Shown piece by piece: positions 24,332 through 37,556 of a stretch of DNA of 64,000 bases. Origin of the DNA: a virus; IMG/VR virus record IMGVR_UViG_3300045806_000063, positions 117,109-181,108 of that record; one strand, written 5' to 3'. Both the position numbers and the translations under genes were made by a program. The notes under the pieces were generated by a model, which made no database searches, was not told the origin of the DNA, and saw only the letters and a program-made list of their open reading frames with translations. Position 1 is the first letter of the stretch, and the number at the start of each line of letters is the position of its first letter.

Positions 24332-25303
24332 ATGAATAATGTTAAAAATAACAACAAAGTAAAAATTTATTACTGTGGTGGGGCTGGTGGAAAGTTAGCC
24401 CATCATGCTAACCTTTTGGAGATTGGTGACTTTACTGGTTTTGCTAAGGTAGAAACGGTGATCATGGATGCTTCATATTCGGATATCCCAGATGACACCA
24501 AGCATGAGGTATACGTCCCGGCACACTGTGACGGTTTTGGTAAAGATCAGAAGGAAGCTTATGACTTCCTAAAGAATCATTTCAATGAGATGATTCGTGA
24601 AAACCTACCAAGCGAATTTAATATCGTACTATTCAGTATGGCTGGTGCCACTGGAGCAAATATTGGTCTCGGTATGATTGAAGCCATTCTGAAACAAGGC
24701 AAACCCGTGGTTGGGGTAGCGATCTGCGCTATGGAGTGTGAGCGTACTACCACCAATACAAGGAACACGATTAAACGATTGGAAGTAATCGTTAACCGTA
24801 CTCAAAAACCGGTAGTTATATCGTTCCATGACAATGGGGAATTCCCTATGTCAGTGGTTAACGATCATATCATTCAGGAGATTAAAGCTCTTTTATTACT
24901 GAACAGTGGTCAAAATACCGGTATTGATACTGAGGATGTCACTAACCTGATTGACTTTAGAGGGGTGACAAAGTTCGAACCAGGTTTGGTTGATTTGATT
25001 ATCACCACCAAACCTGACCAAGTAAAAGTCAATGTGGCAATTGCTGCACTGAGTCTGTATAACGACCTGGATTCACCCAAACTGGATATTACCAGTATCT
25101 ACTCAGGTTTTGGTATCATTCCAGACGGCGCTCAAGGTGCAACAAAGGAACCTATTCCTGAGGCGCACTTCATCGTAACAAATGAGTATCTGGAAAGTCG
25201 ATTAGATCTACTGGATAAAAAGGTAAAGGACTATACCGATGCAAGAGAGCTGATTAAAGGATGCGCTGGTCCTAGAAACACGAATACCGAGTTCGAGTTT
25301 TAG
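24332..25303 (+). CDS. phuZ: Phage tubulin PhuZ
   Basis: KVKIYYCGGAGG, DGFGKD, SMAGATGANIG (tubulin signature variant), IDTEDVTN; 323 aa. Confidence 0.9.
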   Translation: MNNVKNNNKVKIYYCGGAGGKLAHHANLLEIGDFTGFAKVETVIMDASYSDIPDDTKHEVYVPAHCDGFGKDQKEAYDFLKNHFNEMIRENLPSEFNIVLFSMAGATGANIGLGMIEAILKQGKPVVGVAICAMECERTTTNTRNTIKRLEVIVNRTQKPVVISFHDNGEFPMSVVNDHIIQEIKALLLLNSGQNTGIDTEDVTNLIDFRGVTKFEPGLVDLIITTKPDQVKVNVAIAALSLYNDLDSPKLDITSIYSGFGIIPDGAQGATKEPIPEAHFIVTNEYLESRLDLLDKKVKDYTDARELIKGCAGPRNTNTEFEF

Positions 25304-32248: not shown

Positions 32249-32311
32249 AGCTTACAACATAGTGACTAGGATGACTGCTAGGCAACAACCTAGCAGCAGT
32301 GTAACTTATAA
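32249..32311 (+). repeat. 63-bp direct repeat, left copy
   Basis: agcttacaacatagtgactaggatgactgctagg-caacaa-cctagcagcagtgtaacttataa; partner at 33078-33140. Confidence 0.92.
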
Positions 32312-32421
32312 TGGTATATTCAAATAATTTTCATTTATATATCATCTAGATGAGATTACTAAATAGTGATTCTTAAGTAGTCATTCTTTTAATAGCAAAT
32401 TATATCGGAGATAAGATTATG
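32310..32421 (+). repeat. Leader family A copy 3
   Basis: aatggtatattcaaa...tatatcatctagatgagattactaaatagtgattcttaagtag...ggagataagattatg. Confidence 0.9.
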
Positions 32422-32631
32422 GCATTACACACTGGTGAAGAAAAGGGCTACAAACCAAGAACTCCAAATTTCCGGATCGTCTACAAGTTCCCCATCCCTG
32501 GGGGACAGTGGTACGACAACTGGCCCGAGGAGGTCATTGCCTCCTCAGCTGAGGAGGCAATGCTCCAGGCCTCAAGGGAGGTGCTCAGGGTGGAGGCGAT
32601 TCCAGCGGCACAAAACAGGAATCGCGCTTAA
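32419..32631 (+). CDS. Small hypothetical protein, GC-rich, first gene of the repeat-bounded cassette
   Basis: 70 aa behind leader A. Confidence 0.65.
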   Translation: MALHTGEEKGYKPRTPNFRIVYKFPIPGGQWYDNWPEEVIASSAEEAMLQASREVLRVEAIPAAQNRNRA

Positions 32632-32705
32632 ATCAAACCCTAGAAGGTTAGCAACCGACTTTCGTCAATTTTAAAGCCGGGAAATCCCGGCAAGGATTTA
32701 ACATC

Positions 32706-33110
32706 ATGACCGAAGCTCAGGATGAGATATTCAACCTGACGCAACACGCGGCAACGGCTGACCAAGCCGAAGCTGGTGTTGTTGAACCAGTATACAAAGC
32801 AGGAATTCAGTCCTGCTTAACGTTCGTAGGCATACCAACTGCCTATGATATTAAAACTAGGGCTAGCAGCTTAGCAGCTAGCGCACGACAATCTGGCTGT
32901 AAAAAAGCCATGATTGGCGGCGCGCCTTATCTGATGAGCGCGCTGGAAGCTGCGCTCATCAAGGTAGGTGTTACCCCTGTCTACGCTTACTCAGATAGAG
33001 TAAGCGTAGAAACAAGAAACACTGACGGAACAGTCAGCAAGTCAACGGTGTTCAAGCACCTTGGTTTTGTTGAGGTCAGCTTACAACATAGTGGCTGGGA
33101 TGACTGCTAG
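32706..33110 (+). CDS. Csx20-like protein, putative cyclic-oligoadenylate ring nuclease / anti-type-III CRISPR
   Basis: NLTQHAATADQ ~ Csx20 (F)SH.LT.EQ; GVTPVYAYSDRVSVETRNTDGTVSKSTVFKHLGF ~ recalled Csx20 G.IPVY.TTKR.SVE..QEDG.V.K.S.FKHVRF. Confidence 0.6.
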   Translation: MTEAQDEIFNLTQHAATADQAEAGVVEPVYKAGIQSCLTFVGIPTAYDIKTRASSLAASARQSGCKKAMIGGAPYLMSALEAALIKVGVTPVYAYSDRVSVETRNTDGTVSKSTVFKHLGFVEVSLQHSGWDDC

Positions 33111-33140
33111 GTTGTTGCCTAGCAGCAGTATAACTTATAA
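33078..33140 (+). repeat. 63-bp direct repeat, right copy (hairpin loop inverted)
   Basis: Three transitions versus the left copy, and loop ttgttg = reverse complement of caacaa. Confidence 0.92.
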
Positions 33141-33143
33141 GGG

Positions 33144-33270
33144 GATTAAATACTACTGTAGTATGTTAGACTGTTGAGTAATTACTCCTTCCTCGATATC
33201 GAGGAAGGAGTAATGATGTATTCTTTATTTTTTTTTCTTTTAAATCGAAAACATATATTATCTGAGTGAT
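33144..33270 (+). repeat. 127-bp terminator-promoter module identical to 63874-64000
   Basis: Contains palindrome 33181-33214, T-tract and aaacatatattatctgagtgat. Confidence 0.95.
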
Positions 33271-33294
33271 AGTCCGTAGTTAATTAATTTAGGA

Positions 33295-33621: not shown

Positions 33622-35397
33622 ATGGAACGTATAAGAAAATTAGAAGAACTTTTAAGCTGTAGGTATTCAGTTACACCACCTGCTCTCACTCATCTGATTA
33701 AGAATGGTTGGGAGGGGGAGCATACAGTGACCATTGTACCTGATAGAATACATCGTATTATGTCCGATGAGAGCTGGGGGATATTCCTAGACGGGTTCAA
33801 GAGGATGGTATTAGGTACTCCTTATAGGGATATTCTGGAGTTCATAGAGGAACTGGTCGTCCGTAACAATGGAGACGTACGACGGTACACTGGGTATTTA
33901 CAGGATGCGAGAATTCCTTTTAGTGTTCGGCGTGGTTATATGGGCGAGAATTATGGGGCTAAGAAGATAGAGGGTGGCGGGCGTATGCGTGTTCCTGCTC
34001 CTAAACCTGGGACGATAGAGTTCATTATTGATACTGATGCAGTTGAGAATCGGCATGAGGTGTGGACTGATTTGTGCAGTGAACGACTAGTGTCACAGTC
34101 CTGTGAGGGAGCTGCTTGTGCTCTGGCTGATAGATTCATGCTTCCTGGTATTGACTTTACTACTATGGTCAAGTGTGAGAAGGAGAAAGGTGAGTCTACA
34201 GCACTTGAAAGTTGTATTGGGGAGTACTCAGTTACGATCCCTCCTAAGGGTAAGAACAGAATGTCTTTAGGGGGGTATCCAGTGGATATGCCGCCGCCGT
34301 TTCCGACACCTGTAGGGGTTAGGAAGCATTCTCAGATGGATAACGATAGCTGGGAAGTATATTCCAATGCATTTTCGCAAATGGTATTAGGGGTAGACCA
34401 ACCCGGCATATTAGGGCGGGAGTTTAGTAGTGTTATGGAGTTCTTGAGGGGGTTTCCGAAACTTAATGGCAAAGATGGTATAGTGGTCCAATTGAGCGGA
34501 TACTCTTTACGGGAGGCTTCCATACCTTTTAAAATTATACGTGGATCAGCTGGAGTAGATTATAATGTTAATGTACTTAGGGAGGGGCAAGATGGCGCTG
34601 TTCCAGCACCTAGGGATGGTACTTTGGAGATTATTATAGATTCCAGTGCTAACAGATGCATTCAACAGAGATGGGAGGAACAGGCATGTGAACGCATGAT
34701 CGCAAGGTCTGCCTCTGAGGCTGCGGCTGCGTTAATGGAGGTTTTTATGCTTCCGGATATAGAGTTTCGCTATGAAACTCCAGTAATACCAGTTATTCCA
34801 ATGGGCTCGGTAGGGCCAGTAATAGATGAAAAAATAAATGATGGAGAACTAGAAATGGATACTAACTTAGCGGTTGTAGATCCGATATACCCAGATGCGG
34901 ATGCTGATGGGGAATGCTTTCGTCCAGGATTAGAACCAGGGGAATTTGAGGTAGAGGAGGAGTTAAAGAACCAGCTGGCGGAAGAATGTGACACTGAAGA
35001 CTCTCCTACTACTGAGAGAGGCGGAAGTAGTATCGAGGCTACGATAATAGTACAAGGAGAAAAGATGATACTAATCTTGTATACAGGTTTGGACCCTAAT
35101 GGCAGGTACCCGTTTGCGACTCTAGGCGTCCATGCTATCCATCCTGGTGAGAATACCCTGCCTCTTGTGTCTGTGGGTCAGGCCATTGAATGCGATGATG
35201 ACGAAACTTGGGCTCTTGGCTGTGTGATCAACCAAGATATCTTTTATTCAACCGTAGCTACTATGACGGATTTTGGAGTATTGACAGGTATTGGGGTTAT
35301 GTCAGTAGAGTTTACTGATGCACTGAACAGAGCACTGAATGTAATGGTGAGTATTGCGGATGTTAAATATTCTCGTATTCCGAGTAACAATCATTAG
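33622..35397 (+). CDS. Large accessory protein with two tandem ~150-aa repeats, acidic linker and C-terminal domain
   Basis: SW..(F/Y)...F..MVLG...GY...A.IPF...VPAP..GT.E.IID...C...FMLP.I.F occurs twice. Confidence 0.75.
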   Translation: MERIRKLEELLSCRYSVTPPALTHLIKNGWEGEHTVTIVPDRIHRIMSDESWGIFLDGFKRMVLGTPYRDILEFIEELVVRNNGDVRRYTGYLQDARIPFSVRRGYMGENYGAKKIEGGGRMRVPAPKPGTIEFIIDTDAVENRHEVWTDLCSERLVSQSCEGAACALADRFMLPGIDFTTMVKCEKEKGESTALESCIGEYSVTIPPKGKNRMSLGGYPVDMPPPFPTPVGVRKHSQMDNDSWEVYSNAFSQMVLGVDQPGILGREFSSVMEFLRGFPKLNGKDGIVVQLSGYSLREASIPFKIIRGSAGVDYNVNVLREGQDGAVPAPRDGTLEIIIDSSANRCIQQRWEEQACERMIARSASEAAAALMEVFMLPDIEFRYETPVIPVIPMGSVGPVIDEKINDGELEMDTNLAVVDPIYPDADADGECFRPGLEPGEFEVEEELKNQLAEECDTEDSPTTERGGSSIEATIIVQGEKMILILYTGLDPNGRYPFATLGVHAIHPGENTLPLVSVGQAIECDDDETWALGCVINQDIFYSTVATMTDFGVLTGIGVMSVEFTDALNRALNVMVSIADVKYSRIPSNNH

Positions 35398-35648: not shown

Positions 35649-37556
35649 ATGTCAGAAGTAAGACAAGAAACATTAGGAACAAACCGTACCAGCGGTGATC
35701 AAGTAAAGCAAGAAAGACCAGAAAGAGGTCCTTCTCGTAGACCAATTGAAGATGCCCAAGGTGAGCGTAAACCACGCCCATCTTCCAAGCTGTTTAATCA
35801 CTCCATGGCGGGTAGCAGAAGCACTGCTGATCTGGAAGAGATAGTAAAAACGTTTGAGGCTATCTGCAAACAATATGCAGAAGTTGAGAACATCGTCATT
35901 GAAGTAAAACCAATCAGCCACAATCTGGCAATTCCAGCAATCCTGTTGATCTATCGGGAAGGCTCAAATAAGGTACGATATACCGCACTCTTACCATCTG
36001 GTATGCTGCAGGGCACTATTGCTGACAAAGAAGAAAATGAAAGAGGACAAAAATTTTACACTCCTCGATTTGCAGCAGATCTTTGGCCTGGCCTTATGGA
36101 GGATACAGCGGAAGATCTAATCAACCGTACGTACTTCAATGGTAATGCCCAGAAAGGCTGGATACGACTCTGTAGTGTTATCGTACTGCCAGAGCATTCC
36201 GATTATCGTCAGTTAAATACTGCGATTATCGCATTTGATCATGGAGTTACTGCACTGTTGGCAATTTCTCGTTTGGAGAAAGGTGAGTCTACAGCCTCAT
36301 ACTGCTATCAGGATTTTGAAGATCGGGGCATGAAATTGTCAGGGATTGCTGAAGTCAATCCGACTGGTACAATTCTCAGTACCTTAGGTGAGCCACTGGC
36401 AGTGGATTTCAAATTATCAGTGTTAGCAAAAACTGTAAACAATGGTTCAGAGAATCTGCATGATACTGGCACTAGCATTGCGATAACGACAGTTTATGGG
36501 GCTATCGACTTCCAGCTTCTGCCGGAAGAAGAAGAAGTCAAAACCATTAATCGGGATAAGTTTTACCCAGTGGTAATTCCTAAACTGATCATTAAGCAAT
36601 CAAGTTCGGTTAATCCGAACAACCCAGAAAACACAGATTGCTTGATGTCTCAAATCCTGGGGCTGTTAATGGTCCGTCTCTACTCTGAGAAGCCTGAGAG
36701 ATGGGGCCAGATGTTTGAACCCGATAATGCTTCTCAGAACAACAATATTGGCGCCTTGGGTCTGGTCGGCAATCCGTACGCTGATACTACACTGGAGTTA
36801 GGAGTTCACAATGTTGTGAGTAAAGTCACACATGGCCGAAATGCTGGTGGAAAACTGGTAGCTGATCTACTGAATGAGTATTGTTCAGTAGCTCCAATGA
36901 TTATATTGGAAATTCCAGAAGGTGGTCCTCTTGAGGCCCTCCAGAATTATCTGGTGGAAGAGACTAGTGCAAACTATTCGATTATTGCTAACGAACTGTC
37001 AAGTTTCGTTGGGGTTCCAGATAGCTTTGCTGAAGCCTGGGAAAGTGAAGGTGGACCAGCAAGAATTCCGATCTTGGAATTAGAATCGCCACTGAACTTA
37101 CCATTGATTCGCTACACCGGCCATGCGGAAGCAGGTGGTATTCTCCATGATCCAAATGAAATCGATCTGTTACATCTGTTAAACGTAGGTGTATCGATGG
37201 ATGTTATTCAAGATTATGACCAGTTGCATTCACCGGGTGCAAACCATCCAGCTGAACTTAATCAAAGGTATAGTAACATTAAGCGTGTTCTTGATAATGC
37301 TAAAATCACTGGAACCTCAGTGCAATATTGCATTAATATGGACTGGTTAAACCTGGTAGATGATTTCCTCGGGAGCTATGGCATAACCATTGATTTGGAT
37401 GAAGGTCTGACCTTTGGTAATAATGCTTTCGGTCTGTCACGTGGTGGTAGTAGCAAACATGCGGAAGGTTCTGCTATGTTCCGCCGCAGTGGTCTGTCAC
37501 GGACTCGTACTTCCCGTCCTATTGGTGGTCTGAATTCAAGCAGACGTTCATCTTAA
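35649..37556 (+). CDS. chmA: Chimallin, major nuclear shell protein (phiKZ gp54 / 201phi2-1 gp105-like)
   Basis: 635 aa, disordered termini, high-expression codon bias, early promoter, directly upstream of the nvRNAP beta' N-terminal subunit. Confidence 0.8.
   Translation: MSEVRQETLGTNRTSGDQVKQERPERGPSRRPIEDAQGERKPRPSSKLFNHSMAGSRSTADLEEIVKTFEAICKQYAEVENIVIEVKPISHNLAIPAILLIYREGSNKVRYTALLPSGMLQGTIADKEENERGQKFYTPRFAADLWPGLMEDTAEDLINRTYFNGNAQKGWIRLCSVIVLPEHSDYRQLNTAIIAFDHGVTALLAISRLEKGESTASYCYQDFEDRGMKLSGIAEVNPTGTILSTLGEPLAVDFKLSVLAKTVNNGSENLHDTGTSIAITTVYGAIDFQLLPEEEEVKTINRDKFYPVVIPKLIIKQSSSVNPNNPENTDCLMSQILGLLMVRLYSEKPERWGQMFEPDNASQNNNIGALGLVGNPYADTTLELGVHNVVSKVTHGRNAGGKLVADLLNEYCSVAPMIILEIPEGGPLEALQNYLVEETSANYSIIANELSSFVGVPDSFAEAWESEGGPARIPILELESPLNLPLIRYTGHAEAGGILHDPNEIDLLHLLNVGVSMDVIQDYDQLHSPGANHPAELNQRYSNIKRVLDNAKITGTSVQYCINMDWLNLVDDFLGSYGITIDLDEGLTFGNNAFGLSRGGSSKHAEGSAMFRRSGLSRTRTSRPIGGLNSSRRSS

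Follow-up and report, generated by a model that had tools for sequence, protein, structure and literature searches.

Profile comparisons place a 134-aa protein encoded by a chimallivirus-like phage in the Csx20/MJ1673 family, as a true member that belongs to a distinct sub-branch carrying the motifs NLTQH and MIGGAP. Its membership follows from the profile evidence and from residues shared with CRISPR-linked Csx20, and its separateness from invariant residues that the sub-branch has to itself. The gene (32706..33110, + strand) is a candidate cA4 ring nuclease of what we term the mobile-element branch of the family. It lies in a window of 64,000 nt (positions 117,109 to 181,108) of an IMG/VR record, IMGVR_UViG_3300045806_000063, and all coordinates given here are those of the window unless stated otherwise. 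The genome in this record is 181,108 bp long, is terminated by direct repeats and has a GC content of 38.0%.

The open reading frame had been proposed in a first-pass annotation of the window, and we confirmed it as an ATG-started frame running from the ATG at 32706 to a TAG stop at 33108-33110. The motifs that had been quoted for it (NLTQHAATADQ, AMIGGAPYLM and a C-terminal stretch) are all present. An AAGGA ribosome-binding site lies 9 nt 5′ of the start codon. Directly 5′ of this site, between the gene and the preceding orfA, a short GC-rich hairpin can be read from the sequence (GCCGGG-AAAT-CCCGGC; 32676..32691, + strand). A word-indexed protein search returned 153 homologues, and an alignment of 37 relatives contains 16 invariant columns (N10, L11, T12, Q13, H14, Q20, F40, G71, G72, P74, M77, L80, R98, K112, F116 and H118), so the frame is a conserved gene and not a chance one. 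Relatives in this alignment normally stop right behind the sequence GFVE. In the phage protein, the core comprises residues 8-124 and is followed by ten further residues, 125-134, encoded by a direct repeat described below (DR2).

The resemblance to Csx20 noted in the first-pass annotation proved to be real, with NCBIfam, PADLOC, the PF27247 tag and a full-length profile–profile alignment all in agreement. In a single-sequence search of NCBIfam, the best match was CAS_Csx20 (NF040559; E 2.6e-7, residues 82-122), at 31 bits and thus below the curated Csx20 cutoff of 70 bits; the sole other match, to NF052450, was marginal (E 0.009). All of the aligned relatives (37 of 37) matched the Csx20 model, with a best E of 1.5e-10 and every score below the cutoff, and some of them, including the Aliidiomarina and RM378 proteins, span the model end to end (positions 2-121/124). 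In PADLOC, only Csx20-type models were matched, among them the Csx20 domain of a CARF-HEPN-Csx20 fusion (residues 4-121). The Pfam tag PF27247.1 is carried by exactly this protein (P0001) and by every listed relative, as well as by proteins that NCBI names Csx20; this membership is a precomputed tag with no score, the local Pfam set that we searched having no PF27247 model. The Atlas name for the PF27247 family is 'MJ1673'. No other family in the local Pfam set matched at E <= 1, DUF1874 included, in line with the earlier suggestion that the protein is not AcrIII-1, and PHROGs gave no match to it. Two longer relatives, P0121 and P0122, differ in architecture: one, of 665 aa, combines pentapeptide repeats with PF27247, and the other, of 483 aa, scores like a tandem duplication. 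A reading of these longer relatives as Csx1 fusions was rejected in favour of tandem or pentapeptide-repeat fusions.

As a canonical reference we took a Csx20 protein from a Campylobacteraceae MAG (139 bits), encoded directly 3′ of Cmr3, Cmr4, Cmr5, Cmr6 and a DxTHG protein. It has 123 homologues, which are PF27247-tagged and some of which NCBI names 'CRISPR-associated protein Csx20'; no canonical Csx20 was found in 301 Thermoproteota and 251 Cyanobacteria genomes. Alignment of the mobile-element-branch profile with the canonical profile in hhalign gave 97.8% probability and an E of 8.2e-13 over 120 columns, end to end. Canonical Csx20 proteins are of similar size (~120-130 aa) and align collinearly over the full length of the phage protein. 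Common to both (branch/canonical) are a His after strand 1 (His14/His10), a Gln six residues on (Gln20/Gln16), a glycine in the loop behind the central strand (Gly72/Gly75), an RVSVE-type Arg (Arg98/Arg98) and a C-terminal FxH (Phe116/Phe115 and His118/His117). His14, Gln20, Arg98, Phe116 and His118 are invariant in the mobile-element branch, and their canonical counterparts are invariant or near-invariant.

The two groups also differ at defined positions. The branch has NLTQH where canonical proteins have L-x-[NS]-H. The invariant canonical QGDFGA loop is M-I-G-G-A-P in the phage protein and the terminal F-R is G-F-V, with just the Gly, Ala and Phe positions of these two elements retained in the branch. 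Asn10, Thr12 and Lys112 are invariants of the branch's own. Given the replacement of the QGDFG loop and the terminal Arg, substrate or chemistry may differ from those of canonical Csx20. The phage gene further departs from the canonical pattern in being phage-encoded away from cas genes, with no type III CRISPR-cas locus beside it in the phage genome, and in its 10-residue repeat-encoded tail.

An AlphaFold2 model built with the alignment (pLDDT 93.2) is an alpha/beta protein in which the sheet is accompanied by a long beta-hairpin at the C-terminal end and by a disordered tail; in this predicted alpha/beta, possibly CARF-like fold it resembles canonical Csx20. In structure searches with this model, the best PDB match in Foldseek was the cA4-bound CARF domain of Cam1 (E 7e-3), which did not stand out against generic Rossmann-like folds. 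Two VIA-align searches returned Csm6, Cap4, TIR-SAVED, Cam1, Sis0455 and Sso2081 at Z 4.5-5.5 (Csm6 Z 5.5, Sis0455 Z 4.9, Sso2081 Z 4.5) among racemases at Z 6-7; all Z scores were <= 7, a range in which CARF and SAVED proteins are not separated from generic Rossmann-like folds. The modelled protein resembles Crn1 (Sso2081 and Sis0455) and the CARF domains of Csm6 and Cam1 in general alpha/beta, possibly CARF-like architecture, through weak structural matches that cover most of its length and score no better than unrelated Rossmann-like proteins; it has no sequence similarity to the solved structures. A family-profile sequence search of PDB chains yielded no match at E <= 1. This search likewise gave no sign of similarity to Crn4, provided that a Crn4 chain was among those searched. 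In a viral structure library, only uncharacterised phage relatives were matched.

The mobile-element branch is mostly cargo of mobile elements, yet it is tied to type III biology, as judged from its viral and plasmid carriers, from the Cas10-bearing genomes among its hosts and from one Synergistaceae locus. Its members are found chiefly on viral contigs, in prophage-like regions and on plasmids. A relative is encoded on 139 IMG/VR contigs, and the Atlas clusters of the family are 50-82% viral. Isolated phages with a relative comprise RM378, Pasteurella phage Pm86 and Fusobacterium jumbo phages; the match is 40% over the full length for Rhodothermus phage RM378 and 56% over residues 68-122 for Pm86. 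Plasmid copies occur in Azotobacter, Aromatoleum and Caminibacter, next to toxin-antitoxin, HU and similar genes, and the genes around a chromosomal copy in Neisseria are mostly small and unannotated. A branch member is present in 43 representative genomes, many of which are CPR MAGs. Cas10 scored above the cutoff in 7 of 42 such genomes, or about one third of the non-tiny ones. Around the inspected cellular copies, no cas locus was found except in a Synergistaceae (UBA5560) genome, where a branch member with NLTQH and MIGGAP sits inside a type III-A locus.

The Synergistaceae member stands in frame behind a WYL domain, fused to it or directly after it, ~13 kb from Csm1. The stop-free frame (L011:8654-10393) is 580 aa long and comprises both a CRISPR-associated WYL domain and a Csx20 domain of the mobile-element type; it may represent a cOA-sensing or self-limiting regulator. 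A Campylobacteraceae MAG (G608) was seen to have both types, canonical and mobile-element, on separate contigs (C64:5419-5799 and C76:26902-27252), the canonical one as part of a type III-B locus.

The first-pass annotation had assigned the genome to a nucleus-forming phage, and the hallmark genes bear this out: chimallin, PhuZ and four split RNA polymerase (RNAP) genes were found. The shell protein gene chmA (35649..37556, + strand) encodes a very divergent chimallin, recognized through a partial match to phrog_4795, 'nuclear shell protein' (E 2.8e-13), and lies ~2.5 kb 3′ of the Csx20-like gene, the distance given previously. The chimallivirus hallmark tubulin PhuZ is encoded at 24332..25303 (+ strand; phrog_4733, E 2.6e-61). 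The four split RNAP beta-type genes match phrog_2987, phrog_3295, phrog_3015 and phrog_2962, and the window also encodes a tail sheath and a DNA polymerase of giant-phage type. By this gene content, the genome is chimallivirus-like. A tblastn search of 50,697 phage records gave no match to the chimallin, which is 22-23% identical to two other IMG/VR chimallins. By the lack of a tblastn match and the partial PHROG match, the phage stands for a deep and so far unsampled lineage, chimallivirus-like and from permafrost or peat. Neither an 8-kb megablast nor an IMG/VR scan with the repeats that bracket the cassette recovered close phage relatives or an empty site, and no related loci were found through the 591-aa neighbour or the chimallin alignment. 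The gene for this neighbour (33622-35397) lies past the cassette and ahead of chmA. The protein matches no family and has no IMG/VR relatives; it shows an internal duplication into two similar halves, both ending in ...FMLP-x-I-[DE]-F.

The Csx20-like gene is the second of two genes in a cassette that had been described as visibly GC-richer than its surroundings. Measured over 32419-33110, its GC content is 50.4% against 38.0% for the genome, which among equal-sized windows of the 181-kb genome corresponds to z = 4.0 and the top 0.2%. The first gene, orfA (32419..32631, + strand; 55% GC), encodes a 70-aa ORFan: it has no Pfam, PHROG or PADLOC match, only its self-match was found among 1.84 billion representatives, and it is absent beside the Csx20-like genes at 134 other loci. 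The cassette is bracketed by two 66-bp direct repeats, DR1 (32249..32314, + strand) and DR2 (33078..33143, + strand), which are the only copies in the 181-kb genome (0.07 expected) and match neither Rfam nor CRISPR repeats. Each contains a hairpin, with an 8-bp stem and the loop CAACAA in DR1 (32275-32296) and the loop TTGTTG in DR2 (33104-33125). The copies differ by 3 substitutions and by inversion of the 6-nt loop, the stems being identical. The loop is thus reverse-complemented between the copies, as though a palindrome had flipped. DR2 starts exactly at codon 125 of the Csx20-like gene and thereby provides its ten final residues (SLQHSGWDDC) together with the stop codon.

An early promoter had also been proposed to drive the cassette, and this held in part. 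The motif ATATATTATCTNAGTGAT recurs in the phage: the window holds 11 sites where 0.87 would be expected, every one of them on the + strand, and the motif precedes chmA, PhuZ and one RNAP gene; the label 'early' derives from the genes that it precedes. What lies upstream of the cassette is a weaker variant of the motif (32337..32354, + strand; 65 nt 5′ of orfA), whereas the exact copy at 33253 is downstream of it. The variant has a PWM score of 13.5, similar to that of the site before PhuZ, and ranks 24th of ~362,000 genome positions. Behind the cassette, a strong intrinsic terminator (33176..33240, + strand; also delimited as 33181-33214) combines a 15-bp stem with a T-run behind it (RNA fold -27.1 kcal/mol, z = -7.4), and the exact promoter-like copy (33253..33270, + strand) then serves the next gene. 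It belongs to a set of four 48-nt copies, nearly identical to each other, of an extended promoter-like element, TTTTAAAT[CT]GAAAACATATATTATCTGAGTGATAGTCCGTAGTTAA, at window positions 1539, 33253 and 63983 and at genome position 76; two of the four appear to be one terminal-repeat copy seen at both genome ends.

The PeSL promoter/stem-loop cassettes of T4-like phages, reportedly described by Arbiol et al. in 2010 as repeat-bounded accessory genes in a hyperplastic region, offer a parallel. Like them, the present locus is a small accessory cassette with repeated regulatory bounds and cargo that varies among siblings. Unlike them, it is bounded by a unique 66-bp pair with a loop-inverted hairpin, which is not the phage's common promoter element.

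Variation among siblings was seen in contigs from the same habitats. Metagenomes from permafrost, peat and freshwater contain the phage. Variant contigs match it as far as the orfA start codon (32421), where another gene takes over whose product begins M-S-T-V-A-K-G-H. In one DNA contig, position 32421 is linked directly to 33229; further variants depart from the genome sequence just past the promoter, at 33283. The variants therefore mark the slot as hypervariable and the Csx20-like cassette as accessory. Most likely, the Csx20-like gene arrived recently, with a two-gene cassette that recombined into this promoter-bounded hypervariable slot. Metatranscriptomes from two studies contain perfect-match contigs covering 32395-33143 and 32373-33144; as contigs, they may include DNA carried over into the RNA libraries, and where they stop may mark a branching of strains instead of the end of a transcript. 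In the same RNA runs, the depth of the flanks was near zero and that of chmA was high, an uncovered stretch in such runs not being equivalent to silence. Two DNA runs had no comparable peak over the cassette.

We consider it probable, though with moderate confidence, that the protein is a ring nuclease used as a cytoplasmic device against type III CRISPR systems, by analogy with its CRISPR-linked relatives. The type III route would be one of those left open by the shell of the phage nucleus; RNA-guided Cas13 is another CRISPR route against nucleus-forming jumbo phages. The protein, made from a phage promoter, presumably early and in a host carrying type III CRISPR, would stay in the cytoplasm. 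There it would form a CARF-like dimer, as suggested by CRISPR-linked Csx20, and bind the cA4, perhaps also the cA3, that Cas10 would release upon type III recognition of phage mRNA in the cytoplasm. The ring would be cut to linear products, probably metal-free, and cOA-activated effectors would be silenced. His14 in the NLTQH loop behind strand 1, Arg98 and His118 are the candidate binding or catalytic residues. This proposed role, that of a small dimeric viral cA4-degrading enzyme acting against type III immunity, is the role of AcrIII-1/Crn2 (DUF1874), a protein of an unrelated family.

Published work supplies the biochemical and immunological background to this proposal. Cells are protected from nucleus-forming phages by type III CRISPR, which acts by way of effectors that cOA activates (10.1101/2022.06.20.496707). 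As reported by Hoikkala et al. (PMC12409355), Csx20 breaks down cA4 in the presence of EDTA and, when the enzyme is concentrated, cA3 as well; metal-independent cA4 cleavage is known only for one canonical Csx20. The same paper gives the occurrence of Csx20 in phages as 4-5 of 28,114 genomes.

A protein of the Csx20 fold could also have another cyclic-nucleotide job, as a non-catalytic cOA sponge or as a nuclease for a ligand such as cA3, in the context of CBASS or NucC-type type III systems; we regard this as unlikely. It would accord with the invariants peculiar to the branch, Asn10, Thr12 and Lys112, and with the missing canonical QGDFG loop. Cleavage of cA3 by Csx20 at high enzyme concentration points the same way, as do the related Csx15, which shows nearly no cleavage and may sequester cA4, and the Serratia type III system, which acts against nucleus-forming phages via cA3 and NucC. 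Many carriers are, moreover, CPR-associated contigs from genomes without Cas10. Set against this, His14, Arg98 and His118, the polar residues that catalysis would be expected to need, are invariant in the branch and common to active Csx20, and Cas10 is present in 7 of the 42 host genomes.

The gene might instead be a passenger with no counter-defence role, either a hitch-hiker or a contributor to phage or host physiology apart from immunity, which we judge to be quite improbable. Its setting is that of a foreign cassette, with 50% GC, flanking repeats and other cargo in siblings; the repeat has replaced the gene's native stop codon, and its partner orfA is an ORFan. However, all 16 of the 16 family-invariant residues are intact and the structural model is confident, a ribosome-binding site, a promoter-like site and a terminator are in place, and the cassette is represented in the RNA libraries of two studies. 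Conservation of the family is, in addition, strong over more than 139 viral contigs, from which we infer selection on mobile elements.

That the Csx20 similarity is spurious and the frame belongs to an unrelated small alpha/beta family is very improbable and largely refuted: although the single-sequence match is sub-threshold and confined to residues 82-122, fold searches of the PDB are dominated by racemases and other Rossmann-like proteins and no PDB sequence matches, three independent profile libraries name only Csx20, the profile–profile alignment is full-length (E 8e-13), relatives span the Csx20 model and both groups have one Pfam family in common.

Chimallin was found in 3 of 51 other records with a Csx20-like gene (50 IMG/VR contigs and Fusobacterium phage JD-Fnp6), so that, counting the present phage, such a gene occurs in at least four highly divergent lineages of chimallin. 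Most carriers are ordinary phages of 30-60 kb, and the gene is therefore not specifically linked to the phage nucleus. Resolution was poor in a tree built from 116 members of the branch; in it, the 134-aa protein groups with proteins from non-chimallin contigs (aLRT 90) and the copies from chimallin phages do not cluster, a single origin of the latter being possible. We tentatively suggest that nucleus-forming phages have repeatedly captured Csx20-type ring nucleases on promoter-bounded cassettes, as a cytoplasmic shield against cOA signalling. One chimallin-encoding contig of 114 kb (L107/G560) encodes a Csx20-like protein of ~200 aa with a C-terminal extension unique among the members.

The novelty implied by the first-pass annotation was overstated, as phage Csx20 (PMC12409355) and a counter-defence proposal (bioRxiv 10.64898/2026.07.27.740549) are both in print. 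The published phage homologues probably belong to the same mobile-element branch, and an anti-CRISPR role has likewise been proposed for them; the present gene differs in its carrier, which encodes chimallin and PhuZ, and in its repeat-bracketed cassette. In the Pasteurella multocida csx20-aca14 operon, the csx20 homologue is a likely co-opted counter-defence gene regulated by Aca14 (bioRxiv 10.64898/2026.07.27.740549); in the cassette described here, by comparison, no Aca-type RHH/HTH regulator was found and the partner gene is an ORFan. Our literature search found no ring nuclease linked to chimallin or to the genome of a nucleus-forming phage, and no published counter-measure of nucleus-forming jumbo phages against type III CRISPR.

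With the idea in print for other phages, the gain lies in context and material and not in a new principle. A conserved Csx20-family gene that is represented in RNA libraries and sits on a mobile cassette of such a phage is a concrete candidate for ordinary assays. It also lends weight to the view that the large Csx20 branch borne by phages and plasmids serves anti-defence as a family distinct from AcrIII-1. Should nucleus-forming phages indeed capture such genes as a cytoplasmic shield, no earlier anti-type III mechanism would have been described for them.
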